NCBI GenBank assembly: GCA_047967505.1
Contig: CM106538.1
Length of the DNA stretch: 64,000 bases
Direction: 5' to 3' (one strand)
From: Dipteris shenzhenensis
Lineage: Eukaryota
The position numbers and the translations under genes were made by a program. The notes beneath the pieces were generated by a model. It was not told the DNA's origin, ran no database searches, and saw only the letters and a program-made list of their open reading frames with translations. Positions 17,497-44,600 of this stretch are shown piece by piece (position 1 is the stretch's first letter; every line of letters starts with the position of its first letter).

Positions 17497-17600
17497 CTGT
17501 GAACAGCACCATATGCGTATAAAAGCCAGAACAAATGCATGATTTGAAAGCGAGACCTGGCTTTCCAAATCCAAAGACCAACCATTTACAATTGTGTTAC

Positions 17601-20138
17601 CTGTTACACGTGCCTCCAACAAGCAGTGCATTTTTTATCACGGCAAACTCTAAAGATAGAGAGTCCATGCCTTCTTCAGCTAACATGTCCATGGTTTCTC
17701 GGATATCTTCTCCTGCATTTTCAACTTTAATGTGACCAGCAACACAACAAGAGAGTCTAACATTCCTGATGGTGGTACTTCGGAACTTCCATTGTTTTGG
17801 ATTCAGAAGTGATTCCACATGTGATGGATCATTCCAATCTGCCATTAGAATATTTCGCCGAACTGTCTCTACTAGCTCATTATAGCTTTCTGCATGTTTT
17901 GGTGTAAAATCAAGCAGAGTGATCTTGCGTACACATGGTGGGATTGTGCAAAGATCAGATTTCCGAGCACTGATCATACACCTTTGCAAAAGTTGCAGCA
18001 GACGGACACGCCCCTCTTCAAGTCCAACCTCAAATGGTTTCAGAATGCCGCTTTCCCATAATCTTTGGCTTCCTCCATAAACAGGCTCATGAAGAAATTT
18101 GAGCATTGGCTGCAGGTGCGCCACCTGGCTGTTTGGTGTATGAGGCGTTGGCGTGCCAGTAAGCACCCATCTCCGAGATGCATGCATAGACATGGCCATC
18201 TGCAACTTATTTGTGAGACTAAGGCTTGCTCCCAGAGTATGCCCTTCATCCAGCATTATCCGCAGCCAGTGCACACACATCAGAACACTGCTTTCTTTAT
18301 AACTCCACTCAGAGCTTAACCGTGAAAATGTTGTGATTACAATATCAAAATTCCATGCAAGCTCTTGAACCTTTGGAGCCTTTTTGGGGTCATTCCAGAC
18401 ACAGACACGCAACTGACCAGGTTTAGTGTGCCTTGAAATTTGATTCCTCCAATGTTCCACGAGATTTGGTGGCACAACGATAAGAGTTGCCCTAGAAAGA
18501 TATAACCTAACAACGTCCAATGGCCTGTTGAGTGCTTCCCTCAAAGCAGCTAGATCGAATATCAGACCATCCAGGAATGGAGGATAGCACCATTTTTTCA
18601 ATCCTTTACCCTCCCTTTTCCGAATCAAGCCAAATTTTAGGAATAAACTTTCATATCGGTGTTGGTCCTCCCAAGCAGTAAACTCGTGTAGTGATGGAGG
18701 GACTGAAACACCTGCACCAGACATTTTTATCAGTTTTTCGGAGCTCAAATTTACAAGCCATGTCAAAGCTCTATTTGTCTCTCTGTCCCTCAAAGATGCA
18801 CAATCCTTCAGCACGTTTGCAAAGTGAATTATGTTTTGCTCAAGACCAGAGGCACATCCTGCTTTGTAGAATCCTGGCAAGGATGATATGAGTCCACATT
18901 CCCAATTTTCTTCCGGATCTGAACAGCTTTGACGCATAGGGTCTTTGTTCATGTTGCAAAACCAAGCAAGCCCTTCCTCAGGGGCTTTAACCCCGTCCTT
19001 TATCTTCCGCCATTTGCTACAAGAATCGCACTGGACCCAAACATCATGTGCATACAGATTTGCCTGATTAGAATCCTTGAACTCATAGTTGTCCTTCACT
19101 GAAATCCCAGAACCAGGAGCAGAAGAGCCCTCATCCACAAGCAATCCTTCATATGCTTCAAGCAACTTCCGTTTCAAACTGTTTGAAGCTCTAGTCCCAA
19201 GACCCAGTTCTGGCAAGCGATGCCTTGTTGACCTACCGTCCAGTGTAGTTTCAGAGAATTCTCTCTGTCTCTTTCGCCCTGGCAAGCTTTGTGTAGCTGC
19301 TGCAAGGGAATGAGAAGATGACTGAGAGGATGGTGGAGTGCCATCAATCCTGTTGTGTTTGGCTTTTAGTTCCATGCATCGTTTTAGCACAGAACCAACC
19401 CGATGAGAGCTTACTTCATAGTATCCATACCTGTCTCCAGACCTATGTTCACACCAATTTACATGTGTCCCGGCTGGAGGTGTTGCCAGTGTACCCTGTG
19501 TCTTCAAAATTAGAGAAAGTGCAGTCACGGTCTTTCCTAGACCCGGCTCATCACAAAAAAGACCCCCCCTGAAATCTGTGATACAAGGAGGTGCTTCTGG
19601 AGAGAGTTCACCAGACAAACAGTTGAGATAAAAATGAAAGCCATCCTCTGTCCGCAGATCTTTATAAAGAGGATGGACAAGGGTTACGGGATGCAGCTCC
19701 CGCTGCAGCATCCAACCTACTGCTGCCTGTTGGTGAGGAAAAAGCTTCAAGTGCATGCATGGCATGATACACAACGCTACCTCCCGTGTATGCTTACATG
19801 TAGCTGCCATGCTTTGAAGATCTTTCGGTGAAAGCCTGATAAAGATAGAAGTCAGGACTTCATTGGGCATGTCCCAGATCCCAGGAAAAGAAGGCTCTTC
19901 CCCATTTTTGGAAGCGATTGCTGAGCTAAAGACCTTTTCTTCCCTGCTAAGGGATGGAAGTGACTTGAAAATAGCATACATGTCAAACTTTGCCTGTCTA
20001 GTTGCTTCTGAAGTTTCACTATGCATGTCACAACCGAGAACCTGACAGTCTCCCAAATGCCAGATATCATCACAATCTGCGGACTCAAGCTTTCGACTCT
20101 CATGCTTAAGGCACTTTCTTCTGCTCTCCCAATCGCAG
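17601..20138 (-). CDS. Exon 2 of SNF2-family helicase with F-box and CW zinc finger (At3g54460-like)
   Basis: Open frame with F-box (IWDMPNEVLTSIFIRLSPKDL), Walker A GGLFCDEPGLGKT, CW finger WVQCDSCSKWR...WFCNMN, motif Ia TLIVVP, Walker B IMLDEGH, motif III LTGTP; acceptor TTTACAG ends 20139, donor GTAAC at 17600. Confidence 0.96.
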
Positions 20139-20272
20139 CTGTAAAATAAAATATAACAGGAAACTGTCTACATGGGATGGCAAACACCTCACAAAGAAAA
20201 GAGAAAGAAACACTGGGAATTTAGTAAGACTAATCAAACTTCACACGATTAAAAAGAGGGCAAAAGAAGTAC

Positions 20273-21219
20273 CTGAGATGGTTCAGAATTGAAGTAAACG
20301 CGGGACTCGGCGTCCAATAGTTCCGACCTGACCACAAAAAGGATGGCAGATACAAATCCAGTACAACCACAGCACGCACGTCAGCCGCCCTGCGAGCAAC
20401 CCGGACGACATGCCCTTTAACTTTTACCCCGTTTCGCACGGTCATAACCTGCAAATTATTCAAGATCTGGCCACCGCCGTCCCCATAACCCGTTATTCTC
20501 CGTTTCTTACTTGAGGTCCTTGTCTGTAAAGATGGAGTCGCTGCGCCAATAGTGGAATTCGCATCCGGAGTAGGAAGCGTGCGTTCAAGTTTAGCGTTGG
20601 CGCTGCAATTACCTCCGTTCTTAGTGAATGCATGGCTAAGATCTCCGCAAATTTCCCCCGACGATTCCCTAGACTCTTCAATTCCAGACATGCCTCGGCG
20701 GCCTGCAGAAGGAGGCGTGCCAAAATTCGAATTGTCTCCATGCCTTTCAGCTTTCGGCGTGTTTTCGCTTCTAGCAGAAACAATAGGACTGAGCACAAAG
20801 CCTCCGCTTGTATGAAATTTAACCTCAGCACCTTCCCCCGTGAGCCAACATTCGGCCCCAACGAGACCTTCCAAGGGCTCTGCCTCTGACCGGGATAGGC
20901 TTCGAGAGTTGGCGTATTGCCGCCGACGACAATAGAATGCACTCTCGAAGCAAAAATCGTATTTTGCGCTAGGTGTCTTTCCTGCGGCTACGAGCGAACT
21001 GCAGGGCTGCTCGCGACCCACATTTGCAGCGACTTGCGAGTCGGAAGAGGTCGCGGCAGCGCAGGGGGGGTCGTGGCCCAATCGGGGATTCACGGTAAGG
21101 GAGGAGTCCGAAGCGAAGTGAGGCTTGGGAGGCTCAAGGACGGATACGACGAGGGGGAGGAAGCCACAGAGCTTGAAATCATGGGAGAGGGAAGGGGATT
21201 CGGGGCGAAGGTCGGCCAT
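20273..21219 (-). CDS. Exon 1 of SNF2/F-box/CW/RING helicase
   Basis: ATG in CCATGG context at 21219; KLCGFL near the start and RAVVVLDLYLP..LWSG near the end; donor AG|GTAC at 20272 splices in frame to give HLSCDWESR. The four exons total 3933 nt (1311 codons) with no stop. Confidence 0.9.
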
Positions 21220-21560
21220 GGAAGAGGCAGGGGAGGAAAAGACATAGCCAGGGGAGTCAAGGGAAGGAGAGGGGAGCCATAGCCAGGTCTGCGAAGGCTA
21301 AAGAGGAGCATATGAAGAAGGAGGACGCCATAGCCAAGAGCTTCAACTGCAACAAAAACAGAACAAAAGAAAACAAGAAGACGATGAAGAAGAAGAAGAA
21401 GAAGAAGTAGAAGGGAGGAAATGAAAACAGAAAACGAATAATCGTTTTATATTTTTCTTTTATATTTTTTCCACTCTTTTTTTTACAGCGCGGCTTTTTA
21501 ACGTTACCTCGTCCTCCCCGACTCCCGAGTCCGTAGCTAATACAATTTATTTTTTTTAAT
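21220..21560 (-). promoter_or_regulatory. Probable 5' UTR / proximal promoter of the helicase gene
   Basis: Pyrimidine-rich leader with (CTT)n tract (21385-21412 on minus), CpG-containing, AT-rich TATA-like stretches at ~21445-21465; TSS not determinable. Confidence 0.5.
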
Positions 21561-24362: not shown

Positions 24363-27075
24363 TGTTGGAAAGTGGGAGTGAAGGAGGACATCATGGAAGA
24401 GAGTGTGGGAACCAAATGGCAAAATGTTCCATTGAGTTGAGAGGAAGTCCTCTCTTTTATAGAATGGGAGAGAGGGTGGCCTAAATCAATAACACCTCTC
24501 CTACATCAAAGGAGGTAACTCCTAAATCATAGGAACTCCATAATCATAGGCACCACCCCACGTGGGGGCCTTTGCATTACATCATCACGTGTGTCATGGC
24601 CTATGGCACTAAGTGTGCCTCTTCTACACTCACACACACACAAACCATATGATTGCTAGTGGAAGCACACATGCACCTAGCAAGCCCTTGATCACACACA
24701 TCCCAACATGCCCCCCCTCAAGGGTTTGCCTGATGCTATGTCAACAATACATCTAGTCACATAGTTTCTCGTGCCATCTCATGGTGGTCAAGGATAAATC
24801 TATGGCTAGGATCTCATGCTAGCAAAGGTGCCCAAGGGTCAAGGTTGACAAAAATGGGATAGACCAAAGACATATCACATGGCCTACATCATATGCTGAC
24901 CAAAGGTGATTTACAAAAGACAAAACACATAATATTCTTTTTGGAGTACTATTCCAGGCAGAGAACCTCAAAAATTAGCCAAGTGATGATAAATAAAGTT
25001 CAAAAGACAAAGTGCTCAAAAGGCATAGTCTTTATCTTCTATCACAAAGTTTGATTCTTCATTTGTTGATGGAGTTCTCTCTTCAACCAAATTTGCCATG
25101 TTTTTCTTCTTCTCATTGCAAAACTTCTCTGAATGATTGTTCTTGGCACAATAAGTGCAAGGATGGATCTTGTAGCAATTTTTTTCAAGATGATTGGTCT
25201 TTCCACAATGCTTGCATGCCTTGTACTTGCTCTTTAATGAAAACTTTACTACAAGTGCTTGAGTGTGCACTTCACCCATTCTTGAAGTGTTCTTTCTCTC
25301 TTCCTCTTGTAGAGCACTGATGATGCCCTCCAGTGTGGGTTGGGGAAGATTCTTCAAGGTAGTCACAACATAATCATAGTCTTGAGTCATACTCTTCAAG
25401 AGCACAACCATAGCATCATCTTCAATAACTAGAGAGTTGATTGAGGCCAATTGTGTCATAATACTCCTCAAAGTATTAACATGAGCTGCAACATTGTCTC
25501 CATCCATCTTAAGTTCAAAGAACTTAGTTTTCAAATTCAACTTAGAAGTATGAGAGCTAGCACCAAATAACACGTCTAACTTATGCCAGGCCAAAGGGGA
25601 TTCCAAATCTGAAATATGATGCACATAATCATCTCCCAAACCTAATGCAATAATTGCATAAGCTTTCTCTAGCCTTTTAGCATTTGTAGGTGTAGTTGAA
25701 GAAGAGTCACTTGCCTTCCCTTTACCTTTGGTTGTGGTGGATTACTTGACCAAGTCCCACAAATTCTGTTTCATAAGCACGAATTTGATTTTCATTTGCC
25801 AAGTGTGAAAACCTTGGCCATTAAACTTGTCTATCTTAAAGTTGGCCATGAGAGGGTCTTACCTTTATGTTTAGGTAGTGTTTGCTCTCTTACAAATGGC
25901 TTATGAGTCTCAACCATACAAGTGCATATTGCAAGCCATAAAATCCGAAAATCCTAAACTTTTTGCATCAAAATAATAATATGGTTTATGTGACTTTTCC
26001 TTCACAAGTTTTATATTGACATATCTAGGTGCTTATTTCTTCTTCTTTGCTTTCACATATGAAGCATTGGAAGATGAACAAGAGCTAGGCATTATTAACC
26101 AATAATTTTCTGTCAATAAGTCATCTCCAAGCTTGCATCAAGCATTCAACAATAAAAAATGCCCAAAACTGAAGAGTAAAAAAAGGAGTAATTTGGAGGG
26201 CTTGATTCAAGCTCTATAGAGCATAACTGAGAGAGCTTTTAATGTGCATTTGAAGACCTTATACAAAAGATTGTCCACCTAGGAGGATTGCCCAAAAAAT
26301 GCACAGCATTGCTCATGGCAGTAGCGCCTTCTTCGACTAGTCTTTTGCTTGTTTCTCCTTTTCCAGCAAGCATTTGAGCTCAAATTTCATCAACAGCAAG
26401 CTCATAGTGTTGCCCACTTGCAGCTCAGAGGAATTGACAAAATATCGCGTCTATGGGCGGAATTGCTTAAAAGTTCCATGAGCCGAGATCGTGTTGGCAT
26501 GGGCAAACAAAGCAAAATTTCAAAGAATGCTTGGTGTCGAAGATGCACCCCAAGAGAGGATACTTCAGCTCAGAGGGATCTGGGAATGGTCGCTTAATGG
26601 AGGAGAACGGAGCTAAGCAAAATCTATAGAGAAAGAGGGCAAAAATGAAGAAGGTGGAGGGTGGAGAAGAAGATGATGAGGTGTCATATTGAAGCTATAA
26701 TGGGCTAGGGACTCAAGGAGGCTCTGATACCAAATGTTAGAAATTAGGAGTGAAGGAGGACATCATGGAAGAGAGTGTGGGAACCAAATGGCAAAATGTT
26801 CCATTGAGTTGAGAGGAAGTCCTCTCTTTTATAGAATGGGAGAGAAGGTGGTCTAAATCAATGGCACCTCTCCTACATCAAAGGAGGTAACTCCTAACTC
26901 ATAGGAGCTCCACAATCATAGGCACCACCCCATGTGGGGGCCTTTGCATTACATCATCACCTGTGTCATGGCCTAAGGCACTAAGTGTGCCTCTTCTCAC
27001 ACACACACAAACCATATGACTACTAGTGGATGCACACATGCACCTAGCAAGCCCTTGATCACACACATCCCAACA
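24363..27075 (-). mobile_element. Gag-only Ty1/copia-type LTR element (TR-GAG-like), complete
   Basis: LTRs 24363-24708 and 26735-27075 (TG...CA; ~16 substitutions plus a 5-bp indel); TSD CTTTT (24358-24362, 27076-27080); PBS (minus) TGGTATCAGAGC 26732-26721; PPT (minus) GAGGGGGGG next to 24709; only gag inside. Confidence 0.95.
25016..25849 (-). pseudogene. Copia-type Gag (UBN2-like) with two CCHC knuckles; one in-frame stop
   Basis: MANFKIDKFNGQGFHTWQMKIKFVLMKQNLWDLVK* (TAA at 25744-25742), then in the same frame AWHKL..LF, FFELKM, HVNTLRSI, LLKSM..DY; knuckles CKHCGKTNHLEKNC and CTYCAKNNHSEKFC; ends in TGA. Confidence 0.9.
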
Positions 27076-27987: not shown

Positions 27988-28022
27988 CCTCCCTCCCTCC
28001 CTCCCTCCCTCCTTCCCTCCCT

Positions 28023-28055
<33 letters not shown>

Positions 28056-28137
28056 CCCCCCCCCCCAAAGCACCAATCCCCTCCTTATGGCCTTAAGAGG
28101 GGCTCTTATTTATTTATTATAGATTTGATTGATTAAT

Positions 28138-28179
<42 letters not shown>
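27929..28179. repeat. Compound microsatellite (CT)n/(CCCT)n and (AT)n
   Basis: Direct inspection: CT/CCCT tract 27929-28055, AT tract ~28139-28179. Confidence 0.98.
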
Positions 28180-28181
<2 letters not shown>

Positions 28182-28299
28182 TTTTTGTATTTAGAACTAT
28201 TAAATATGGCAACCCAAGTAATGGCTTCATGCCAAGTGAAATTGGTTTGTTACTTTCTTCTTTCTTTTTCTTTGTTTTAACATGTTCACTTATATTAAG

Positions 28300-31200
28300 G
28301 GGGAGATCACCCTCCAAAAAAGACATGGATACAAAAATTGGCTAACTAAAAGGGCAAAGTGCCCGAGCCTACACTACGAAGGCAATCAAGAGCTAACCAA
28401 CCAAGAACAATACTAAAGTGAAAAGCACAGGTGCTAGTGTGTACATATATCCACTAGCAATGTTAATCATCAATAGTTGTTCTTGTTTTTTCCCAAGAGA
28501 TCTCGATCTCCTAAGTTGAGAGAGTTGCAAATTTCCTAACCCGATAAGAAAATGGAGGACCTGAGATAGGACTAGCAAGTAGCCAAGGTTGATAGGAAAC
28601 CGGGTTGGTCCTCAATGAGCACAGATCAGCATCTCAACTTCAGAGAATGCTGCACCATTTTACCTATCTCCTTAATAGTTCCCTCCACTATTTTCCAAAC
28701 CGCATGAATCACTGGGCAAGACCAACACAGGTGTTTCTTCATAGGAAATCCCACAAAATGGACTTCTTGGATTTATCACCATCCACTTGGATAGTTTACC
28801 CTTTAGAGGAAGCGACATATGTAATACTTTCCACAACAAGAGGCTTGCCTTTCCAGCACAGCAACCCTTCCAGACATTCTTGAAGCAATCAAGACACCAA
28901 CCTTGACTACGTCTTAGCCTCCCCTTCTCATTAAGATCGGTCACCAGACAATGCTTCTCCAAGAGTCATCTATACACCAATCTCGAAGAGAGTTTCCTCA
29001 TACTTGATCTCTTTCCAATGCACCAATGGTTAACCCTCCAATCACACATAGTAACATAATTATAGGGCTAGTTAGATGGCACCCAGGTCATGACCAAAGC
29101 AAGTAAAGCTACCTCATTGTTGTTAGTTGTTAAGCAATCATGATTTCCGACAGAAATTTCCAAGAAGCAGCTCATACATCCCATAACTAAAGCCAAGTAT
29201 AGACTCCTTTCTTCTGCAAATTCCGAGCCCCAATCAAATCTAAAACTAGAGGTTTATTTTCAGTTGAGACACCCAGCTCCACCACAAATTTTCATGATGG
29301 CTAGCATCACCATGTAATCCAAGTCTCCCTTTCTAGAAATCAAATAGCCACAGACCGACAATTATATAAGACCACACCACTTTCATAGGAAACTAAGAGC
29401 AAAACTGTTAGACCCTATCAAGTGCCTATACCTCGTGCTTTCCCATTCTCAATAAACAATTTAATAACATCTACCCAAGGAGCATTTCATTCAAAAAGAC
29501 AGGAGGGGTTGCTTGCAGAGCAAAGAAACATTTCTTAGGCCAACATCTGGTACCCCCAAGCCAACTTTCAACTTAGGAACTTTGGGAGCATCGCATGGAA
29601 TATAGTGAAATTGTTATCTACCCCTCTTCAACCCATAAGAAGGCACGCAAAATCCTCTCAATCTCAATCCAATGTGACCTTTTGAAATTCTAAAACGAGG
29701 CCAAATAAGTAGCGGAAGGAGCCAATACATGTTGGACAATGAGAACACGGGCATTCTAGCCCATAAAGGCTCCATACCAAGCCCAGAACTTTTGCCTAAT
29801 CCAATCCTTGAACTAGCCAAAACACTGTCCAAGAGTTAGGCCTAAGCCAATAGGGGGAGCCCAAGTATCTGACCACCAAACCTCTTTGAATCCAATTGAC
29901 TTGCAACTCAGCAAACCACTCAGGAAGGGGACCTTGATTAATTTTGATTGTAAAAGATTTGGAATAAGCTACATTCCAACCCTGAGGCTGCACAAAACTT
30001 CTTTGAGATAGTGCAAAGGTCGATTGTATTTTCTTGACTCTCCTCTAAAAAGGCCACATTATCATTTGCAAAAAAATAATTAGGGTAATAGTACCTAGGG
30101 CAAGCAACAAGGGTGCTAAGGGGCACCCTTACCTCACAAATTATTGAAGCTCATAGCTGCCCACCCCCCCCATTGAAGCAAAGAACTGCTATAGGATTCC
30201 CAAATAGCCAACATACCATCCTTCCAAACACCAGTCCAAACCTATGCTGACATCCTCAAATATAATTTTCTTCCTAACAACATCATTAGCCATTGCCACT
30301 AAATCATTTTTAATGGTCTTCCAAAGGCAACAAAAACCTCAACAATCAAACCATCAGGATTATGCAACTTGTCATTCTCACAATTCTTTCTCCATAAAAA
30401 ACCCTTCTTAAACTCTATAGTAGAACTTAAAAGACCTTAAAAGCCCTTGCTAAACTCTATAGTTGAACTTTAAAGACCCTAGAATTTATCTCAGATAGCA
30501 CCTCCCTGACATTTTCTCTCCATGATCGTTCCTACATACTCGTAGAACAACCATCTCCCCCAATTCGACAAGAAAACTTTAGCAACGTGCCAAAATCAAA
30601 ACACAAGAGTACCCTTTTGATGCATTACTCCATCTAGTGACTTTCTCTTCTTAACACATCAAAAAACAACTTAGAAGTGTAGATCCCCCAAAGCCAACCA
30701 TGTTTGCCTGCTTTTGATTCTTGCTTATATAGCTTTCTCAAGCTCAACAAGCTGTAAGACTTTCTCCATCTCAGCCAACAAGGTCAAGGTGATTGCATCA
30801 TAAGGAGAAACATATAGGGCTTCCTACAAGCCTCTGTAATCTGAGCCAAGCCCTCCCCCTTAGAGAAAATTATTTAATTCTAGGTATCCCACTTGCAAGC
30901 TAAATCAACCCACCCCTTTGATTACTACATCCCACTTCTCACACAGATCCATAATGCCAATACCACATTCCTTCCATCTACATATGATAGCTCCACAAAA
31001 CTCTTGTTAAATTTGAAAGGAATATCCATGGCTATGTTTTGAATGCCTACAAGGCTCGTAGTCATCTGTTTTCAGTGCAATAAATAATAAAGAAATACCG
31101 CAAGGGGCACCAGCTGATTTGGGGCCAATCAATGTACTGTGTTTTTAGCAAGAGCAGATTAATGCATAAGCCTACTAATGACAACTGCAAAAGCATCCCA

Positions 31201-32140
31201 ATTAACCCTAACATTTTGGACATATCTTTCTGCCTTAAAAACTGCCAATAATTTATGGGATTATGTCATAGGTAATGAAGCCCATCCCAATCATCTTGTG
31301 TCAGGATGGTGAATGGCAAAGAAATTTTCCATAACATAGGTAAATGATTAGATATGCCAAAACTCAAATATATTCCCCACCCATGGGGATCATCATCCAC
31401 CATCCCTTTTTTGAAGTGTAGAACCAATCAATTCGACTTGCATGAAAATTAGAACCTTTTCTCTTATTATCCCACAAATAACCAATTAAGCCCTCAAGGT
31501 CCAATTCAAAATAGTTTACCACCCCTATCCAATCACAACTCTCCAAAAAATCCAACTCTATACTAGAGATACCCCTACTCAGGTGCAACTGATCCTTGCA
31601 TGCCACCGTCATGTTCTAGTCACCCACCTACAACCAAATGATCTCTCATTCAACCAATAGGAACCTCTCCCAGTCGGGGAATTGGAGCACAAACACTTGC
31701 AACTCTAAACCCGAAGTCCTAAATCTTGACCATAAGAACAACAAAGTACCCTTACTCATCCCCAAACAGCTTTTGCATTGTAAGACACCCAAACACTAGA
31801 ATGGCAACACCCCCCCTACCATGAGCAATTCAATTCACAAAGATATTAAAATCTAGTTGATGCAACACAAGCCATAGCCCATCATCCTCACCACATTTCA
31901 ACTCTTGTAATAGGACAATGTCATACCCCCTCTCCTTGATAACCAACATACAAACTTTTTGTTTAATCTTTTTCAACTCTTGTAGTAGGACAATGTCATA
32001 CCCCCTCTCCTTGATAACTAACTCTTGTAGTAGGACAATGTCATACACCCTCTCCTTGATAACCAACAAACAAAATTTTTGTTTCATCTTATCACCAACC
32101 CCTTACATTCCATGATAGAGCAGACACACTAGTATAAAAA
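28300..32140 (-). mobile_element. Decayed L1-type LINE(s): APE endonuclease and RT remnants
   Basis: DIVLLQELK (31890-32070, locally triplicated), SRIDWFY (~31430), FFANDNVAFL (YADD-like, ~30060), VRYLG (~29865). Confidence 0.7.
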
Positions 32141-33037
32141 ACTCCACCTGATGCTCCTACTTTGATTAAGATTGGGAGAATGCTTTATATGCATCCTTAA
32201 AAAATGAAATTAGTTCTAGTTTCCCGCCAAATTTCTCATCACCTCTTTGAGATTCTTGTAACACCCTGCATGGACGAAGAGTTACCTTTCGACCTCGCTT
32301 TAATAAGAGGATTCTTTGCATTAGATTTTTCTTAATCCATGCGCTTTCTATGATTAGCTTCATGTAGATCTTCTTCTTGCGCTTGCTCTTGTACTAGGAG
32401 AGATGGCAAATCGCTTCCTTTAGCCTCACTTGGAGAATCCCTTGGTTTGGTCTTCTTCTTAGACTTTAGTCTCAGGATTTTTGGCAGGGATGGCTCACTA
32501 AAAGTTGGAGCTGCCCTTCATGTTCAAACACTTAAGCTAGCACCTTGCCTTTTCTCCCGATAGTCTTCCATGGCTTTTCTTTCAATAGGGCTATAACCTC
32601 CTCAGGGATGTCCGATTGATCATGCTTCAATAGATTCAAGGTCAAATTGGATAAACCAAGTTGATCATGCTTTGATGTTGTCTCATTATGTTTGTGGATG
32701 AAAACTTCTCACTCCCGTAGATGGGCTCCAATGAATGTGAAGTATTTCCTTTCTAGTCAACCATCTTGTCTCCCTTTGCAAGGGAGAATTTCTCCTCCCT
32801 GTTCAGTATCACACATTCAAAAAGGCACCAAACCGTAGTTGCTAAAATAAAATCACCTCATCCGAGAGTGTGATGGACACAAGCTGAGGATATCTTGGCC
32901 TGTGTGCCATAAGATCTAGGCCTTTTTAGCTCCAAATATCATTCACTATATTGAGAAAAAGGCAACACACTAGCTATTTTGTCTTTCTTTAATAGGAATT
33001 GTATCTTAGAAGATCAAATGCAACTTCCTCCCCCACC

Positions 33038-33041
<4 letters not shown>

Positions 33042-33136
<95 letters not shown>

Positions 33137-33201
33137 CGTCTCCCTCTCCCTCTCCTAAAAGATCAAATGCAACTTCCTCCCCCCCCTTCTCTCTCCCCCC
33201 A

Positions 33202-33296
<95 letters not shown>

Positions 33297-33302
33297 CCCC
33301 CT

Positions 33303-33377
<75 letters not shown>

Positions 33378-33380
33378 CTC
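33042..33380. repeat. Long compound (CT)n microsatellite
   Basis: Three CT tracts, with a duplicated spacer AAGATCAAATGCAACTTCCTCCCCC at ~33010 and ~33159. Confidence 0.98.
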
Positions 33381-35300
33381 CAAATAAAAGTATTTTACAT
33401 ATGGCCACATGGCTGCCATTTTATGTCCAAGATTTCCCTCCCTGATTACTTTGAACCACTATGCTAGCTCAAAGTACACTCATCCAATAAATAGCCATGT
33501 CATTCTCCACTAGATGTGTTAACCTTAATGAAGAGACTTGCCATAATAGTAGCCCTTTGCTACAATCTATGTGAGCTTCAATACCAACTTTTACATCAAA
33601 TATGAAAGCATTCTTGATTAACCAAATATACCACAAACCTATTCATTGGAAGAAATGAAAGAAGAACAAATATTATGGATTATCTAGCCCATGTAGAATC
33701 TTGCCAAAAACCCAATTTTAAACCATGATGGCCCTATTGGTCAATAGCTTCCATATCTGAGAAATGAAATTTCGCACCTTCATTACCATCACACATGAAA
33801 TGGAAAGAGACATAGAAGTTTCCAAGCATGTAGTACAAAACACATGATTACAAGGACCAATCCATTGCTTTCATGATTAGTCTCCCATGGGTAGGCCTCC
33901 CACTAGCATGTGCTAGATAAACACCTTCCCTTGATATGGAATGTTAGAGTGCCAGCTCTTGAAAAGTCCTTCCTTTCACTAGGCCCTCCTCTTCTCGGTG
34001 TGCAATACTGATTAGTTTTCTAAGTGAGCATATGCTTCTCTTTCACTATCATATGGTACAACTTGACTTGTTATATGCTAGACTATGGCCTAAGGCTTTT
34101 GAAATGCCAAATCTAATCAAGATTGCTGGTTCTCCACTTGAAGAATCTCACCAAATGATGTAAGGGCCACCCTCACTTTCTCCCATAACTGTGCGAAGCC
34201 ACAAGAAAGCTGTAAGGATTGTCCCATTTCTTAAAACAATAATAATACACCTCCATAGGGCAACAAAGCATCCCATATTCTCACTAACCCCAACAATCCA
34301 TTTGATTGAATTGTGGCCTCTCAATTAATTTTTTAAGCCACTTTAGAAAGTAGCCAGCATGTCACCTATCGTGGAATTCAAATACAACCATTAATCAGAG
34401 GGCTTCCATTTAGTATATTCCAACCCCTCCTTCCATGGAATCATCAAATGAGAAAGGAGAGGTGAAGCTAACACTTGAAGTTATTGGGAAGCATTCACTA
34501 CATCCCACCACGTACTATCAATCTTGGGATTACCATCCACAAGTAAAACCTCCTCTATGAGTGCTTTAGCCATTGGCACCCATGGATCTTGAGATTCACA
34601 CATATCTTGGAGTGAAGACCATGACCACATGTAATGGAACATCTAATAAGGTCGCCCTTCCACTCCTCTTTAGAGTAGTAACATGTTCTTAGGAAATCCA
34701 TGTCTGCCCTAGCTTATTGCTTGCTTTTTCCATGGCATAAATCAAATGGGTTATTATATCTTATACAAAGCTTTTACAGTCCATGGCAATAAAGGCAATG
34801 AAAAAATGATCATACTATTGTGCTACTTTGAGGCGAATATGCACGGGCCACCAACCCTAAGGTTTTTAGTACACAAACTTGTCATTAATCCATGCTAGCA
34901 AATTCTGTGAATCAACATCAACTCCAATTGTATAGTCCATGTGATGTGTGATATAGACCCTTTGGATAACCTACCCATTACAAACAAAACCTAGAAAATT
35001 GGTCTCGATACATCTTATTAGAGCAGATTAATGCATAAGCCTTCTGATAACAATTGCAAAAGCATCCCAATTAACCATAACATTTTGGACTCATCTCTTT
35101 GTGCCTTAAAAAACATAAAAGAATCATATACTAAGGCTTGGACAACCATTTTCCCTCTGGCGAGAAGTGTAAGACCTACAACTTCACCATCCTCCACTAG
35201 CTTATCTAGACTAGACAAGATTGGATGTGTACCAATAGCAAGCACGAGGGGGCTAAGGGGGCACCCTTCTGTGATCTATCTCATCAAATGAATAGGCTAA
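33381..35300 (-). mobile_element. L1-type LINE 3' half (RT tail, zf-RVT, C-terminus) ending at a (GA)n tract
   Basis: HPILSSLDKLVEDGEVVGL, YDSFMFFKA (YADD-like) near 35100-35245; IGLWYIWLIKNAFIF-type C-terminal motif near 33600-33660. Confidence 0.75.
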
Positions 35301-35394
35301 GTCACCCCAAGTGGCCAATGTTATGTAATAAGGGGCTAGGATTTCTTTTTCCCTTTATCATAACATTGCACTCAATGTGACATTGGCGATTTCT

Positions 35395-35530
35395 TGCCTA
35401 GAAGAATAGGTTGGATGGCACCAACTTTACTCTCTAGAGTTTTATGATGCAGAATCTCTTGGTTGCCAATAATTTATGGGATTATGTAATAGGTAATGAA
35501 GCCCATCCCAATCATCTTGTGTCAAGAGGT
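35395..35530 (+). mobile_element. Copia gag N-terminal fragment
   Basis: KNRLDGTNFTL*SFMMQNLLVANNLWDYVIG matches the LxGxNYxxW...LWxYVxG motif. Confidence 0.65.
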
Positions 35531-36127
35531 GTGGTCACAGTGGTGGTGCATGGGGTGGCAATAAGGGCAACAACACCTAGTCAACTGCAAGTAACTACAT
35601 TTGACACCTGATCCTCCTACTTTGATTAAGATTGGGAGAATGCTTTATATGCATCCTTAAAAAATGAAATTAGTTCTATTTCCCCCCCAAATTTCTCATC
35701 ACCTCTTTAAGATGCTTGTAGCACCATGCATGGATGAAGAGTTACCTTTTGACCTCGCTTTAATAAGAGGCTTCTTTGCATTAGATTTTTCTTAATCCAT
35801 ACGTTTTTTGTGATTAGCATCATGTAGATCTTCTTCCTGCACTTGGTGTTGTACTAGGAGAGAAGGCAAATCACTTCCTTTAGCCTCACTTTATGAATCC
35901 CTTGGTTTGATCTCCTTCTCAGACTTAGTCTCAAGATTTTTAGCAAGGATCGCTCACTAGAAGTTGGAGCTGCCCTTCATGTTCAAACACTTAAGCTAGC
36001 ACCTTGCCTTGTCTCCTGATAGTCTTCCATGGCTTTTCTTTCAATAGGGCTACAACCTCCTCAGGGATGTCCGATCGATCATGCTTCGATAGATTCAAGG
36101 TCAAATTAGATAAACCAAGTTGATCAT

Positions 36128-37546
36128 TTTTTTTCACAAAAAGAAGGGCTAATTATATTACTTCGAGACAAGGAATACAAGAGACTCAACAGCAATGCTG
36201 GAGCACAGGGATAACTCCCACCTGCGAAACTACAAGCCACACAGGGCTAAGCATAAAACTGTTACAAAATGCTGTCAAAACAAAAGCCCTAGTCTGGGTC
36301 TTCTGAAAACCAGTAAACCACGAAACCAAAAAAGCTACGGATCCCTGATGAAGTGAATCCTGGAAGTACTAGAAAGTCTTCGAGACAGTGAACCATCAAC
36401 TGATATGACTCCTCTGAGTCAACATCGAGCAATCGAGGCCGACCAATAATCCCTGATGAAGTGAATCCTGGAGATACTCGTAATCCAAGCATGTATGGAT
36501 CCCTCCTCCGCTGAGCTCCCGACCATCGTGCCCGCCCGAGGGTGCCAATAGGAAGAGACCTGCCAGCATGAGCAACCACCACCTGACGGGGGGCGAGTCC
36601 GCACTCCAGTAGCCCGCTCCACGCACCTGCAGGCCTCAACCCACATGGGGAGCCTCCTGGTACGACAAGAAGAAGTAGAGCCAAAGGAGAAGGGATCCCT
36701 GAGGAAAGAGTCAAGGGCCGCCGCCCTGTGGAAAAAGGATCTTCGAGAAAAACTCTGAGTCTTGAGAAGCTTGGAGACCCAAGCAAGGAGGCCACCAGCC
36801 GACGCGACCCCTCTGGGTCGTTGTCCAAGGGCCAGGTCTTTCCAACTCCAGTGCACCACTCGTGACCAGGAGATGCTGATGGGACGAGGGCAACACAACC
36901 ACCACCACGGGGAGGCACGAACTGGACGGCTGGGGGATGGCCATGGCCGATGTCGCCAGGGCAAAGCTGCGAGGAGAACTCCAACTCCGGAAGAGCAGGA
37001 GAGTGCAGGGCAAACCTCCTCCCGCCAAAGAAATGCCACCGGGAAGGGAGAGACGCTTCCTGAAAGATGAACCTGCTGCTGCTGTGAAGGTGCAAATGTG
37101 GAGGACCGCCAGGGCAAGGGAGACGGCTGAAGCCGAAGATACTCCCCTCCGAAGAAGTGCAAGGCCCCATGCCACAAGTGGCTCGACACCTCCAAATGCC
37201 CGAACACCCCCAACCCAAACGCTTTCTACTCCACGGAGAGGGAGAAGGGTGCAAAAGACCAGCCTGGAAGACCACACTGCCACGGGAAGGAAGCCACCAA
37301 CAAGCAGGCCAAGGCTGGGGATGCGCCATCCAGGAGAGGCTCAAGGCTGAACCGGAGCAGGGGGGGCAGCCAGTCAGCAAGCGGGAGCACTCAGCCAGCG
37401 GAGGGGGCTTGCAGCAAGGCGAGCAAGGCGGCGACCAAGGTGCGAGGGGAGGGCGCGGGGAGAGAAGGGTGGGAGTGGCAGGGCGGAGCCTAGGCAGCGC
37501 GAGGGGCGGGGGCAGCAGCGGGCGGGGTGAAGGTCGCGTTCTTTTC
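36128..37546 (-). mobile_element. 1.4-kb GC-rich poly(A) retroposed insert (non-autonomous, L1-mobilised)
   Basis: TSD ATAAACCAAGTTGATCAT at 36110-36127 and 37547-37564; oligo(A) tail on minus (T-run 36127-36134); the paralogous site at 32651-32668 is empty with a single copy of the TSD. Confidence 0.93.
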
Positions 37547-38307
37547 ATAAACCAAGTTGATCATGCTTCTATGTTGTCTCATTATGTTTGTGGATGAAAG
37601 CTTCTCATTCATGTAGATGGGCTCCAATGCATGTGAAGTATTTCCTTTCAAGTCAACCATCTTGTCTCCCTTTACAAGAGAGAATTTGTCCATGCTATTC
37701 AGTATCACACATTCAAAAAGGCACCAAACCATAGTTGCTAAGATAAAATCACCTCATCCAAGAGTGTGATGGACACAAGTTGAGGATATCCTAGCCTCTG
37801 TGCCATAAGATCTAGGCCTTTTTAGCACCAAATATCATTCACTAGATTGAGAAAAAGGCAACACACTAGCTATTTTGGCTTTCTTTAATGGGTGATTTTG
37901 GATCGAGCCATCGCCATATCTAGGTCACAGAGGCCCAAGCCCCCAAGACCCTACGCCTGGCACCCATATCTTTATTGGATCCGTGCCATCATTCCCAAAC
38001 ACTGGAAATGTGTGGCATCGAGTTATGAGATCCTAGAGCTGCCCATGATTGGGATTTTTGACATGAGAAGAGTGCAACCTTTCTATTGATTAGCTTTTTG
38101 CCTATGCTGATCAATTGGTACTTTTTAGTAATACTTGCTTGGTATTTCATTAGTTTTGGGTCCCTTGCAATCCCTCTGACTGTAAGTACCTTTAGTAGCT
38201 CTCAGCTTTCAGCTTATTTATTTTGTTGTTCTCTTTGATGAGACAACACTAGTAGATGTATCAATTATTTTAGTCTCATAGACCGTTTGGCCTTTTAGAG
38301 ATGTTAA

Positions 38308-38309
<2 letters not shown>

Positions 38310-38345
<36 letters not shown>

Positions 38346-38748
38346 AATAAAATTATTTTATAGATGGCCACATGGCTAACATTTTATGTCCAAGATTTCC
38401 CTTCCTGATTACTATGAACCACTATGTTAGCTCAAAGTACACCCATCCAATGTATAGCCGTGTCATTCTCCACTAGATGTGTTGACCTTAATGAAGAGAC
38501 TTGCCAAAATAGTAGCCCTTTGCTACAATCTATGTGAGCTTTAATGCCAACTTTTATATCAAATATGAAAGCATTCCTGATTAACCAAATATGTCACAAA
38601 TCTATCCATTGGAAGAAATGAAAGAAGAACAAATATTATGGATTATCTAGCCCATGTAGAATCTTGCCAAAAACCTAATTTTAAACCATGATGGGCCTAT
38701 TAGTCAATGTGAGAAATGAAATCTCGCACCTTCATTACCATCATGCAT

Positions 38749-38832
<84 letters not shown>

Positions 38833-39271
38833 CCTCTCTCTCTCTCTCTCTCCAAATAAAATTATTATTTTACAGATGGCCACATGGCTACCATTTTATG
38901 TCCAAGATTTCCCTCCCTGATTACTTTGAACCACTATGTTAGCTCAAAGTACACTCATCCCATATATAGCCATGTCATTCTCCACTAGATGTGTTGACCT
39001 TAATGAAGAGGCTTGCCATAATAGTAGCCCTTTGCTACAATCTATGTGAGCTTTAGTACCAACTTTTACATCAAATATGAAAGCATTCCTGATTAACCAA
39101 ATATACCACAAACCTATCCATTGGAAGAAATGAAAGAAGAACAAATATTATGGATTATCTAGCCCATGTAGAATCTTGCCAAAAACCCAATTTTAGATCG
39201 TGATGGGCCTATTGGTCAATAGATTCCATATGTGAGAAATGAAATCTCGCACCTTCATTACCATCATGCAT

Positions 39272-39345
<74 letters not shown>

Positions 39346-39780
39346 CCTCTCTCTCTCTCTCTCCAAATAAAATTATTATTTTACAGATGGCCACATGGCT
39401 ACCATTTTATGTCCAAGATTTCCCTCCCTGATTACTTTGAACCACTATGTTAGCTCAAAGTACACTCATCCCATATATAGCCATGTCATTCTCCACTAGA
39501 TGTGTTGACCTTAATGAAGAGGCTTGCCATAATAGTAGCCCTTTGCTACAATCTATGTGAGCTTTAGTACCAACTTTTACATCAAATATGAAAGCATTCC
39601 TGATTAACCAAATATGCCACAAACCTATCCATTGGAAGAAATGAAAGAAGAACAAATATTATGGATTATCTAGCCCATGTAGAATCTTGCCAAAAACCCA
39701 ATTTTAGATCGTGATGGGCCTATTGGTCAATAGATTCCATACGTGAGAAATGAAATCTCGCACCTTCATTACCATCATGC
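38310..39780. repeat. Tandem triplication of a ~510-bp unit [(CT)n + LINE 3' end]
   Basis: Units begin CCAAATAAAATTATT at ~38343, ~38852 and ~39363, each preceded by (CT)n; near-identical ORF-track peptides 511 bp apart (38944 and 39455). Confidence 0.95.
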
Positions 39781-41701
39781 ATGAAATGAAAAGAGACATA
39801 GAAGTCTCCAAGCATGTAGTACAAAATACACAATTACTAGGACCAATCCATTGCTTTCATGATAAGTCTCCCATGGGTAGGCCTCCCACTAGCATGTGCT
39901 AGATAAACAACTTCCCTTGATATGGAATGTTAGAGTGCCAGCTCTTGAAAAGTACTTCGTTCAACTAGGCCCTCCTATTTTGGGTGTGCAAAACCGATCA
40001 GTTTTCTAAGTGAGCCTATGCTTCTCTTTCACCATCATATGGTACAACTTGACTTGTTATATGCTAGACTATGGCTTGAGGCTTTTGAAATGCCAAATCT
40101 AACCAAGGTTGCTCGTTCTCCACTTGAAGAATGTCACCAAATGATGTAAGGGCCACCCTCACTTTCTCCCGTAACTGTGCATAACCACAAGAAATCTGTA
40201 AGGATTGTCCCATTTCTTAAAGCAATAATAATAAGCCTCCATAGGGCAATGAAGCATCCTAGATTCTCACTAACCCCAACAATCCATTTGATTGAATTGT
40301 GGCCTCTCAATCAATTTTTTTAAGCCACTTTAGAAAGTAGCCAGCACGTCACCTATCGTGGAATTCAAATACAACCATTAATCAGAGGGCTTCCATTTAG
40401 TATATACCCCTCCTTCCATGGAATCATCAAATGAGAAAGCAGAGGTGAAGCTAACACTTGAAGTTATTGGGAAGCATTCACTACATCCCACCACATACCG
40501 TCAATCTTGGGATTACCATCCACAAGTAAAACCTCATCGATGAGTGCTTTAGCCGTGTGAAAATTTCTATTTTCATGTATTCTAGACAAGATTTAATGAA
40601 AATGAAGGATATGTAATTTACTATTAACTTATGTGCCATTTTGTGGACTATTTGTGATGCTACTTTGCCTAGTTTGCCACCATCTCTTCAAGGTGCTTTT
40701 TTAGCAACTTTCTATCTCTTTTGTGGAACCCTATTGCTAATTTCTTATTCAAGTGCTCTACACAAAAGCCTTCAAAGTGAATAATGCATCTATTGCTTAT
40801 CCAATGCCAACATCTTCAATCATGGAACTTGATTGCTTTTTCAACAAGGGTTACTTATCATATGTATTAAAAATCGAAGATGGTAAAGAACCTCTCATTT
40901 TAGATTATCTTTTTCATATTACTTAAGAAGAGGAATCATTGGTGTAGGAGTTGTCGATATTGATATCAATCACACGATTTCCATAGGAGATGACTTGGCC
41001 AATTGTTTCATGGCTTCTTGTGCTTCTCCAATTGAGTAATCAGCCTTAATCAAATCTGCTAATATTGAAATTGGATTAGTTAAACCTAGTGGTTCATCAT
41101 CTAAACTATCTACTATGGCTATTGCCTTCAAGGGAGTAGTAGATGTCCTAGTATTTTGATATTCAAAGAGTGCCTATAGAGACAATGCCAGTCTAGAGTT
41201 TTGTGGCAATTTTTTTCTTATCCTTTCTTAAAATATCAACCATGATCCTTGAGTACACATACCTTGCCCGATTTATTTTGTGCCCTTTTAAGATTGCATG
41301 CAAACAATGTGTTGTTGTCCTTTGACATATACTCTATTTTTACAAGCAAAAAAACTCATTTTAAAAGCCATGCTAGTTACATTCTGTGTTGATGATTGTT
41401 TTTCATAACATAACAGTCTCTTGTTGTTTTTGGATGGCCAAATTCTACTATCATAATAGCATCAAAACATTTCTTCCATTTTGGATTCTTAGCTAATGGT
41501 ACCCTTTAAATTTTTTGCAATCCACTCTTGATAAGCAAGATTAAGTGTATGAGACGTTGACATGTGCACTTAAGTGGGTAAGGATAACAACGTACTTTTT
41601 CCTATATATTGAGTGATTTCTAAGGAAATAATCACATCTTTCTTATGTTGCTCTCTTCTCACCATGTGTATCTACTTTGAGCCTCCATAGATTTCTAGAT
41701 G

Positions 41702-43600
41702 TGGTATCAGAGCCCAAGTAGCTCACTCTTGTACAACCTGTGTGTTTGTTTCCCTATCATGGCTCTTCTTTCCTAATTCTATCTTTGTATGTTGGTGTCT
41801 TCAAGACTGGTTTCCACTCCTACAAGCTTGATTGACATGTTGTAGATCGACTTGAATTTCTACCAAAACTAGGTGAAGCTATCATTTAGCACTCATCTAG
41901 AATTGTCTTTGTCTTGGGGAATGGTTAGCCTACTTGTATTGATGGCTTTGCACATTAATTTTCTTGCTACTATTCACATGGTTCCAGATCTTCCTTCTTT
42001 CCTATCGCATCATGTTCAAGCTTTTCTCTGACTGGGACAAGTGTGACTGCCCATCATTATTCTCTAATTGAGGAACTACTAGTCAACCTTTAACTTGGCT
42101 CAAACCTCACCTACAATATTCACTTTGGTAGATTCAGAGACAAAGCTATGTCATTAATATCATCACCAAGTCTGAATCTCACCATTCTACTAAGGACAAA
42201 ATACATCGCTTCTCATATTCTCTTTAATACAATTATCCTAGATAGCCCATGGATCTCCCAAAAACAACACGCTACACTGTTTCTCGAGTTGGCTACATAT
42301 GCAATTCTCTATGCTGACCCACATATAATACTATTCAATCATTCATTGCTCAATATTTTTCCTATAGCTTTGCCATATGTTTTGAATTACATCTCTCGTG
42401 CCTCTATCTATGACTATCCACTACTCCTTTGATTCAAAAAGCTAGTTCTCACTACATCAATCCATGACAATGTGATGGCCTATCTTTTTTAGTTTTTGCA
42501 AAGTATTTTGTTGCTAAGGTTCAAAGATTCCTTCATTGGATGACAAGAGGGACTATTATATTCGCCCTTAAGCCCATTTGCAAGGTTTTCTCTTTGTGAA
42601 GCAAACTAAAGGTTTGACTTCCCAATGGCCACACAAGTCATTAATAATTTCATAGGTTTTGGCTTTTATACATGGCAATAAAAGGTTACGTACCTTCAAA
42701 TGTAGAAGAACAAAAGAGACACAGAGAAAAGCCTTAGAGATGACTATGAAGAAAGCTTTGGGATACATAGTTGCAACACACCCAAATTAATGTATTCATC
42801 ACATTGATAGTATATTTAGTGCAAATGCATGGGAAATTTATTAAGACTCACTCCAAGCATTCCAAGGTGAAATTTCTCATGGTTTGAGGTATGATCCAAA
42901 GAATGATCTCACTAATCATTTAAATAAATACAAGAGTATTAGACAATAATTGCTTAATTAAACAAGTTTTAGGTGAAGATCAAGCTAAGGCAATACTCTG
43001 AGCTGACTATGATGTAAAGGATATAAAAGTCTAGTTGAGACATTGTCTAATATGTATAACTTACACTTTATGACATTGAGTCATCCCCATTGGAGAGTTA
43101 GAGTAAAATTAAATTAGTAGAGAGCATGGCATCCACTTCTACCCATGAAACAACCTTCATGAGCACTAGGAGGAACTTCTAAGTGGAAATTAGAGGATCA
43201 AATGCAACCACTTTGGGTTAAATAATTGCAAAGAAAAAGATGTAGGAACATTAGTGTTTCATATACAAGAAATTTGGTCATGATGAGAGAAATATTTATC
43301 AAGCCAATTATATTGGCAAGCCACCTCAAAGCCATCATGTATTTAGCTCTAATGATCACAATGATGTATCTTTGTCCATTGGACATTTGTTTTGAATCCG
43401 ATTATGTATTGAGCTTGCCTTTGGCATCATATGATGTAGCCAAGGAATAATTTTTCATTGCCTACACTGATAGTTACACCACATGTCTATGAACATGATA
43501 GGGGACTCAGTGGGGTGACCTTCTATGTAAAGTCATGACATCTCTGATGACATTGGCAATCGGTAATGACTAGCCTAGCATCAAGGGCAGTGTTGAAATA
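41702..43600 (+). mobile_element. Heavily decayed copia-type element (PBS + gag remnant)
   Basis: TGGTATCAGAGCC at 41702; gag-like remnants NDLTNHLNKYKSIR, EDQAKAIL and knuckle-like CFIYKKFGH around 42900-43290. Confidence 0.55.
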
Positions 43601-43959
43601 GATGATGCTAGACATATTATATGTACTCAAGAAAAGAGTGGAAGAGTGGTATGAAGAGAGATTTGTTGATTTGAATGATAGTTTCTTAAAAAGATGCAAA
43701 TAATTTCTTTTTCTTTTTTTCCTTTTAGGTGCTGGGCCAGATGCATTAATGAAGAGGCTTAAATGTGTGCAAGAAGTGGATTTGATGCTAAGGCTAAAAA
43801 ATGTGTGATATAAGTGCTAAAATGTGCATGTGATGTGACAAGTGTGTAGATCATGACACTATTAAGCGTTTTTTCTCTTTGGAGCACCCTCAAGTTCTTC
43901 CTAGATCAAGAGATACGGCTTGATCAATGTGGAGGGGGAAAAAAGGTAAAAAACAATGA

Positions 43960-44600
43960 TGTGGCAAGAGGGTTCACATGCAAAAAATGTGCATGTTAAG
44001 GAGTGTACCTATGAAGTACTATGCTGAGGTGGTAGCTTAGTTCACATGGGAAACTGTGCCTATGAAGGGGTCTACCTATGGAGCATTATGCTGAGGTGGG
44101 ACCTATGTCGACATAGAAGTGCATAGCAAGAGGTAGCTATGCCTGGCAGGAGGCTATGTGCCATAAGACAATGATGACATGGTAGAGGATATGGTATGGT
44201 GACATGGCCCGCACCTGTGTCCACATGGAAGTGCATAGCAAGAGGTAATTGTGCATGGTAGGAGGCTATGTGCCACATGGCAATGATGAGATGGTAGAGG
44301 ATGTGGTATGGTGTGATGATATGGTTGATGATTGGATGTGATGATGTGGTAGTTCATGTGGTTGTGTTGACATGTCTTGATGACATGGATATTGACACAT
44401 GGATGTTGATGTGGTAATTGGGTGATGTGGTAGTCGAGGGTCAGCTAACATGGTAGCTGATGTGTCAATGATGTGTTAAGAATGATGTGGCACTAGACAT
44501 GTTGATGATGACATGGCATGATAAGGATGGGGTGCCATGTGGTAGTTTTTATACTAGACTTGGATATGGGTGACCTGTGAATAATATGTGCCATATGTCA
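43960..44600. repeat. Degenerate short-motif repeat array (CACATGG / GATGTGG / GACATGG)
   Basis: Recurring motifs and an ~118-bp near-duplicate (ACATAGAAGTGCATAGCAAGAGG at 44111; ACATGGAAGTGCATAGCAAGAGG at 44223); probably the non-coding part of an LTR element. Confidence 0.6.

Follow-up and report, generated by a model that had tools for sequence, protein, structure and literature searches.

Plant parasites of retrotransposons without long terminal repeats (non-LTR retrotransposons) are usually regarded as short interspersed elements (SINEs) derived from tRNA. To our knowledge, the low-copy Sadhu elements are the one plant example on record of long non-coding poly(A) retroposons without an RNA polymerase III (Pol III) head. 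A literature search returned no plant report of long non-autonomous derivatives of long interspersed elements (LINEs) beyond Sadhu, with most subscription journals lying outside it, so that this absence is weak evidence. A review of land-plant transposable elements gives SINEs as the sole non-autonomous non-LTR order in the passages concerned (PMC9033089). Sadhu was described in Arabidopsis, and the relevant passages of Rangwala and Richards (Mob DNA 2010, PMC2848041) present it as non-coding, without long terminal repeats (LTRs), carrying a poly(A) tract and flanked by target-site duplications (TSDs) of 7-16 bp. According to the same passages (PMC2848041) it has no similarity to tRNA, 5S or other small RNAs and no Pol III A or B boxes, its spread is presumed to occur by LINE-driven target-primed reverse transcription (TPRT) with no helper named, its 5' end holds a polypyrimidine tract of about 20 bp, sense transcription begins at the start of the element, and A. 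thaliana contains 39 related sequences. Here we present an insert of 1419 bp (36128-37546) in a 64,000-nt window, the whole stretch that was analysed, of contig CM106538.1 of Dipteris shenzhenensis; sequence beyond the window came from public sequencing runs and protein collections. In our view the insert is likely to belong to a multi-copy family of non-coding, non-autonomous and LINE-dependent poly(A) retroposons in a plant genome, as a full-length member with a rearranged structure.

An earlier note on the window had pointed to a young, GC-rich poly(A) retroposon with an 18-bp TSD, an oligo(A) tail and an uninterrupted copy of its target site in the same window. All three observations were confirmed, with small corrections of coordinates and strand. 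The two TSD copies are identical at 18 of 18 positions and the A-tail directly adjoins the first of them (Table 1). On the plus strand the left end of the insert reads as a run of seven Ts (eight with the last T of the TSD). Because this homopolymer is T on the plus strand and lies at the left end, the sense strand of the element is the minus strand and its 5' end is at 37546. The empty site was recovered by BLAST of the window against itself: 32145-32668 aligned to 35605-36127 (92.4%, 524 nt) and 32651-32996 aligned to 37547-37892 (92.5%, 346 nt). In the empty copy, where the 18-mer is present once, these two alignments share exactly 18 nt. Repeats are spaced at 3459/3460 and at 4896, and the difference of 1436-1437 equals the combined length of insert and TSD. 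This is a filled-site/empty-site pair of the textbook type and, with its TSD, A-tail and empty site, a clean insertion of the retroposition type. The paralogue that carries the insertion extends further (32145-34571 versus 35605-40554, about 92-93% identity), and the insertion postdates a duplication whose copies are now 7.6% diverged. The identical TSDs, a CpG observed/expected ratio far above that of the flanks and an age below that of the duplication all mark it as young. A TSD of 18 bp falls within the range of 7-20 bp that the passages on LINEs in PMC2848041 give, and the anatomy as a whole, with an A-tail abutting the TSD and extra nucleotides at the 5' junction, is probably that of LINE-type TPRT. 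The element occurs only once in the window.

Copies were found in sequence from elsewhere. In a word-index search 15 of the 20 listed runs shared part of the stretch, none of them half of its words, and the best share was 0.19. Nothing about host or habitat follows from the small shares in runs X5-X15, which include air and plant metagenomes. Contigs from four public runs (X1-X4) were aligned to the insert, with 4 contigs for X1, 8 for X2, 1486 for X3 and 186 for X4. The run X3 is labelled "DNA?" and its contigs cover a wide range of likeness: 122 were at least 99% identical to the insert, 348 fell between 95% and 99%, 778 between 90% and 95%, and 238 below 90%. Beyond the tail the match gives way to mutually unlike letters in 25 contigs of X3 and 4 of X4 (agreement 0.4 and 0.54), a pattern expected of many separate insertion sites. 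On the 5' side, contigs of X1, X2 and X4 all ceased to match at 37539/37540 and continued for 46, 74 and 110 letters, respectively. The letters that follow in X1 and X2 differ from each other and from the window, and a fourth contig, from X3, stops at 37512. These endings suggest that the family has a defined 5' end, and that the window copy reaches it and adds 7 further nucleotides. Summed contig depth in X3 was 3633 at the tail and 42-157 close to the head, a drop that would fit 5' truncation of many copies, though contig depth can neither rank the parts of the element nor serve as a copy number and the gradient is a hint only. Dispersed copies, common termini and unlike flanks were thus all observed, as in retroposon families generally. 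The earlier note had left two options, a long non-autonomous LINE parasite or a single retrocopied RNA; the former fits better, and the latter was dropped in its one-off form, since many contigs share the tail or the 5' end and have unlike flanks. The flanks at 35600-36103 and 37616-37867 were without cover in X1-X4, which by the rule of the method proves nothing. A different repeat in the right flank, at 37868-38100, was also covered (depth 285-2312 in X3 and 27-46 in X4).

The protein collections gave a similar picture. A profile-free search of 1.84 billion protein representatives returned 8 proteins, and a word-indexed search for shorter proteins returned 5, one of them new. The resulting nine (P0001-P0009) are unnamed singleton open reading frames (ORFs) of 99-199 aa, all on ENA or Logan contigs that measure 619-1910 nt, and they are translations of further copies of the element. 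Searches among proteins of similar or greater length yielded no match to the sense frame of the insert, and the protein searches as a whole yielded no protein or mRNA parent beyond these short ORFs. In metagenome contigs a 23-nt word taken from the internal repeat matched exactly in 0 stretches, and the back-translated 418-aa sense frame gave 159 pattern matches, none of which was confirmed.

The comparison of copies also revealed structural subfamilies. The internal direct repeat seen by the earlier note is real (28 of 30 positions), and both of the same-frame copies that span it (P0002 and P0003) are without the 36 residues between the repeats; the 108-nt gain in the window copy is therefore derived. 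At a second place, the junction at 36747/36748, the window copy is without about 95 codons that are present in P0001, P0006, P0007 and P0008, and the gained 108-nt piece re-uses part of the piece that was lost. A contig of X1 (36389-37074) crosses the junction without gaps, with 26 differences in 686 positions, and a contig of X2 (36434-36641) has the same arrangement as the window copy. As both contigs share the arrangement, it is a subfamily trait and not a private accident of this insertion. We also considered a second family sharing only the 3' 320 nt, which ten X3 contigs leaving the insert at 36446 with an agreement of 0.99 had suggested. Their letters translate as in P0006 and P0008 and the contigs are canonical copies, which likewise removes the helper LINE as their source.

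The composition of the insert differs sharply from its surroundings. GC content is 0.59-0.66 inside compared to about 0.38-0.44 outside. The CpG observed/expected ratio is 0.56 in the insert (at an overall GC of 0.577), compared to 0.19 and 0.14 in the two flanks and 0.29 for the whole window, in agreement with the CpG richness that had been reported before. The first 200 nt of the sense strand consist of 50% C and 69% pyrimidine with a CpG ratio of about 0.67. The T-rich 3' end was likewise borne out, with 39-42% T across the final ~220 nt of the sense strand. The AATATAA word in this region is a possible poly(A) signal, compatible with a site for polyadenylation of RNA polymerase II (Pol II) transcripts. 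The final 156 nt fold slightly better than shuffled sequences (z −2.39; 4 of 200), a result too weak for us to retain a 3' stem-loop. No inverted repeat in the insert was among the repeats of at least 40 nt in a scan of 28000-44000.

Neither enzyme domains nor a small-RNA head could be found, as the earlier reading had it. None of the six ORFs of the insert, which take in every sense frame as well as the long antisense ones, matched a Pfam family at E ≤ 1, and they hold no remnants of reverse transcriptase (RT), endonuclease (EN), zf-RVT or RNase H. The eight ORFs of other copies gave 0 relevant Pfam families; a match of P0004 to DUF6338 (E 0.0024; 17.9 bits with a cut-off of 26.5) was judged to be due to chance. 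ARAGORN reported 0 tRNAs in the insert, and the sole Rfam row was below threshold (20.6 bits with a gathering score of 48.5; E 0.72) and was taken as chance. Going by the usual box consensus, the sense strand contains no B box, and A-box-like words occur only loosely, with one mismatch. It does contain ten runs of at least four Ts, so a Pol III transcript could not span the element. A length of 1419 bp, no tRNA-, 7SL- or 5S-type head among the search results, the missing B box and the ten T-runs together set the insert apart from SINEs.

In the mechanism that we propose, a source copy would be transcribed from or near its own GC-rich and pyrimidine-rich 5' head. The likely enzyme is Pol II, because the T-runs would stop Pol III. 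A putative internal promoter in the C-rich head, which the earlier note had also proposed, is suggested by the 5' end common to several contigs together with the T-runs and the 3' end. The RNA would then be polyadenylated at the signal in its own T-rich 3' end. As the element is without enzymes, it would be copied in trans: the endonuclease and RT of an autonomous LINE would nick the target site, use the A-tail for priming and reverse-transcribe the RNA into place, leaving the 18-bp duplication. We infer that this helper is a LINE of the L1 type. L1-like LINEs exist in the genome, since a degenerate copy sits nearby at 28240-32102 on the minus strand, with matches to zf-RVT at 28675-28965 and to an endonuclease at 31833-32102. 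The degenerate A-rich tail of this copy lies near 28240-28280, and next to it come (AT)n and then a long (GA/CT)n tract.

Several observations count against the reading of the insert as a LINE-dependent retroposon family. The last 400 nt of the element, compared to the 3' end of this degenerate LINE, scored 19, with shuffled sequences at 20.5 ± 2.9, and thus show no similarity; no helper was identified in this comparison, which covered one LINE 3' end, that within the window. The nick site on the plus strand (..GATCAT/GCTTC) and the sense-strand TSD, which begins with ATGATC and is preceded by C, do not match the L1-type consensus (TTTT/A, with a TSD opening with an A-run), a consensus that is mammalian; the target preference of plant LINEs is described as poorly known in the passages of PMC2848041 that treat it. 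The L1-like 3' end proposed by the earlier note was therefore not upheld, given both the lack of similarity to the one LINE 3' end of the window and the nick site. Furthermore, the evidence for the family consists of short contigs, with the agreement on the 5' end coming from three contigs and the window, and, as regards transcription, DNA carry-over may account for the contigs of X4 and of X1, a library taken as RNA on a guess. Finally, none of 1000 mononucleotide and none of 1000 dinucleotide block shuffles reached the length of the 418-codon sense frame, and the frame was free of stops in 2 of 2000 shuffles, so the ORF cannot be dismissed outright.

This frame could mean that the insert carries a real gene for a protein rich in Pro, Ser, Leu and Gly, for instance an unusual ORF1-like RNA-binding protein, and that the family is semi-autonomous. 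We regard this as improbable. Besides its length, beyond all 2000 composition-preserving shuffles, and the rarity of stop-free shuffles, it has in its favour that the stop after '...EDPD' is common to P0003 and the distant P0005. The translation consists of 14% P, 13% L, 12% S, 11% G, 4.3% C and 3.3% W. The deficit of stops, however, spans all three sense frames: the first 1257 nt contain 5, 0 and 6 stops with about 8 expected for each, or 11 compared to 23.7 ± 3.6, and at 36292-37545 stop triplets occur at about half the dinucleotide expectation in every sense frame. The deficit is mainly one of TGA (7 compared to 16.7 expected), while TGG is in excess (50 compared to 32.8), and it probably reflects the composition of an A-poor strand where TG tends to precede G. 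Neither a bias by codon position (chi2 p 0.62) nor a period-3 signal (0.84) was seen in the frame, whereas all seven control ORFs or ORF pieces from the window had p ≤ 0.009 and period-3 signals of 2.7-8.0. The indels among other copies break the frame, as all 11 listed variants are of 1 or 14 nt and 0 of 11 are multiples of 3, and P0006 shifts frame relative to the window copy. No Pfam family was matched, no protein of 232-2090 aa matched the frame in the searched collections, and those matches that lie in the same frame do so by construction of the search. Because of the absent period-3 and codon bias, the stop deficit in all frames, the frame-breaking indels and the frame change in P0006, we read the frame as non-coding.

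The absence of enzyme signals bears on a further reading, which we think unlikely but give somewhat more weight than that of a gene: the insert could stem from an autonomous LINE family, either as its non-coding 3' part or as a derivative with an internal deletion, in which case the common 5' end would be a subfamily breakpoint rather than a true start. Plant LINEs are very diverse according to the parts of a preprint that deal with them (bioRxiv 10.1101/2022.11.04.512097), the window copy is itself a variant with a deletion and a rearrangement, and the drop in X3 depth from tail to 5' end is what 5' truncation would give, though contig depth cannot rank parts. Against such a derivative, a young insert of 1.4 kb has no RT, RNase H, zf-RVT or EN signal, and neither do the eight ORFs of other copies; among proteins of 733-2090 aa none has the sense frame in common with it, which is weak evidence; and the X1 and X2 letters past 37539/37540 are mutually unlike, with no well-supported common continuation listed. 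The gradient from a GC-rich 5' to an AT-rich 3' end, the word resembling a poly(A) signal and the 7 extra 5' nucleotides, which are normal for a processed pseudogene, would also suit a cellular Pol II transcript retrocopied by a LINE, either a long non-coding RNA or an mRNA with a long CT-rich leader, whose look-alikes would be a gene family or pieces of other repeats. This has a small probability in our view, between those of the two readings just discussed, as 1486 contigs in one DNA run spread across all classes of likeness, the flanks at the tail end are many and unlike, 1.84 billion protein representatives contain no protein parent beyond the short unnamed ORFs of copies, and coding periodicity is absent. 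Least probable of all, and very improbable in absolute terms, is that no retroposition took place and that DNA-level insertion, as filler DNA at a repaired break or as a DNA transposon, happened to begin with a T-run. A tail of only 7-8 As and the non-canonical nick site would be consistent with it. The TSD length within the LINE range (PMC2848041, passages as above), the lack of an inverted repeat in the scan described and the finding that other copies finish at the same tail argue against it. The positions of the features of this element are collected in Table 1.

Table 1. Coordinates of the insert, its target sites and its internal features in the window.
Feature	Position	Strand	Basis
Target-site duplication, copy on the tail side	36110..36127		ATAAACCAAGTTGATCAT; 18/18 identical to 37547-37564; single in the paralogous empty site
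Oligo(A) tail, A7 (A8 counting the adjoining T of the TSD)	36128..36134	-	read directly; runs from 36134 to 36128
3' region, T-rich, whose AATATAA word lies 19-25 nt ahead of the tail	36135..36340	-	T 39-42%; word at sense position 1388
418-codon stop-free sense frame, judged non-coding	36292..37545	-	no period-3 signal, no codon-position bias
Two 30-nt direct repeats (36341-36370, 36449-36478) flanking a 78-nt piece; 108-nt subfamily gain	36341..36478	-	28/30
GC-rich, pyrimidine-rich body and head	36479..37539	-	composition; no Pfam or Rfam family
Junction where the window copy lacks about 95 codons present in other copies	36747..36748	-	P0001 aligns to sense nt 799, then diverges
7 additional nt between the TSD and the common 5' end of the family	37540..37546	-	X1, X2 and X4 contigs cease matching at 37539/37540
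Target-site duplication, copy at the 5' end of the element	37547..37564		ATAAACCAAGTTGATCAT repeated; read directly
Uninterrupted paralogous target site (empty-site control)	32651..32668		18-mer present once

The surroundings of the insert are plant DNA, with an ORF with SNF2, F-box and CW domains, fragments of Ty3/gypsy and copia elements, and pieces of DUF4283 and DUF659. An uninterrupted ORF of 856 codons at 17597-21297 on the minus strand contains F-box, SNF2-related and CW zinc-finger domains and is preceded by an ORF of 355 codons without a Pfam match; the region looks like an intron-poor plant SNF2/F-box gene. A Ty3/gypsy pol region at 984-4826 (plus strand) carries RT, RNase H and the zinc and core domains of integrase spread over several frames and is hence degenerate. 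Direct repeats of 346 bp (24363-24708 and 26735-27075, 94%) surround a copia-type gag ORF at 25016-25741 (minus strand), and the whole may be a short or deleted LTR element. Another pair of direct repeats, of 824 bp (7746-8568 and 9360-10160), shows 95% identity, with ORFs that have no Pfam match. A DUF659 fragment lies at 13203-13499 on the plus strand (E 1.5e-14); DUF659 accompanies hAT-type transposases. In the duplicated host segment around the insertion the second copy has three tandem units of 512 bp (38310-39782) and the first copy has one, adjoined by long (CT)n tracts at 33020-33390.

If the proposed reading is true, a young, CpG-rich and apparently abundant family would be a tractable case for the study of template choice in trans by plant LINEs. 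It would also raise the question whether the GC-rich head is a portable Pol II promoter or a CpG island, and the insertion could provide a presence/absence marker of recent insertions. Should the family already be an unclassified repeat in Repbase or Dfam, the value would lie only in a well-documented insertion with an internal empty-site control. A far stronger version of the claim strikes us as doubtful, namely that this is an abundant and still-active plant counterpart of Sadhu or SVA and the first of its kind, kilobase-sized, transcribed by Pol II and headed by a CpG island, with modular rearrangements and hundreds to thousands of copies in several plant taxa, which hijacks an L1-type LINE via poly(A) alone.

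We compared the element to four described kinds. Copies of L1-type plant LINEs that are truncated at the 5' end share with it the A-tail and TSD and a possible pattern of 5' truncation among copies. They differ from it in that the element has no RT, EN, zf-RVT or RNase H remnant, whereas even the degenerate LINE of the window keeps its zf-RVT and EN matches. Plant tRNA-derived SINEs are likewise non-coding, A-tailed and LINE-dependent; in the passages of PMC9033089 that concern them, however, they measure a few hundred bp, derive from tRNA and have A and B boxes, whereas the element measures 1.4 kb, with no tRNA, no B box and many T-runs. The SVA elements of hominids, as the corresponding passages of PMC3287187 describe them, resemble it as non-autonomous non-LTR elements on the kilobase scale that have no Pol III head, use L1 in trans and form structural subfamilies. 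They are, however, animal elements composed of SINE-R, VNTR (variable number of tandem repeats) and Alu-like parts (PMC3287187, same passages), while our element showed no such known modules and has no sequence relation to them. Sadhu, taken from the passages of PMC2848041 cited at the outset, shares most with it: both are non-coding, carry poly(A), have TSDs of LINE size and a pyrimidine-rich 5' end, lack LTRs and Pol III A and B boxes, show no similarity to small RNAs and presumably depend on LINE help. The differences are those of sequence and scale. The Sadhu 5' motif CAATCGTTSC is absent from the element on both strands with up to 1 mismatch, and the likeness to Sadhu was judged by description. 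The pyrimidine- and CpG-rich head extends over hundreds of nucleotides compared to about 20 bp in Sadhu, and the element is longer and far richer in GC and CpG. Its TSD measures 18 bp compared to 7-16 bp, and Sadhu TSDs open with A-runs, which the TSD of the element does not. It also appears much more numerous, with 1486 contigs in one run compared to the 39 sequences of Sadhu, though contigs are not a copy number. The earlier note spoke of an undescribed parasite; the kind as such is already known from Sadhu (PMC2848041), and it is rarely documented in plants. Sadhu appears to be the closest described kind, and the element would work alike, but we do not file it as Sadhu.

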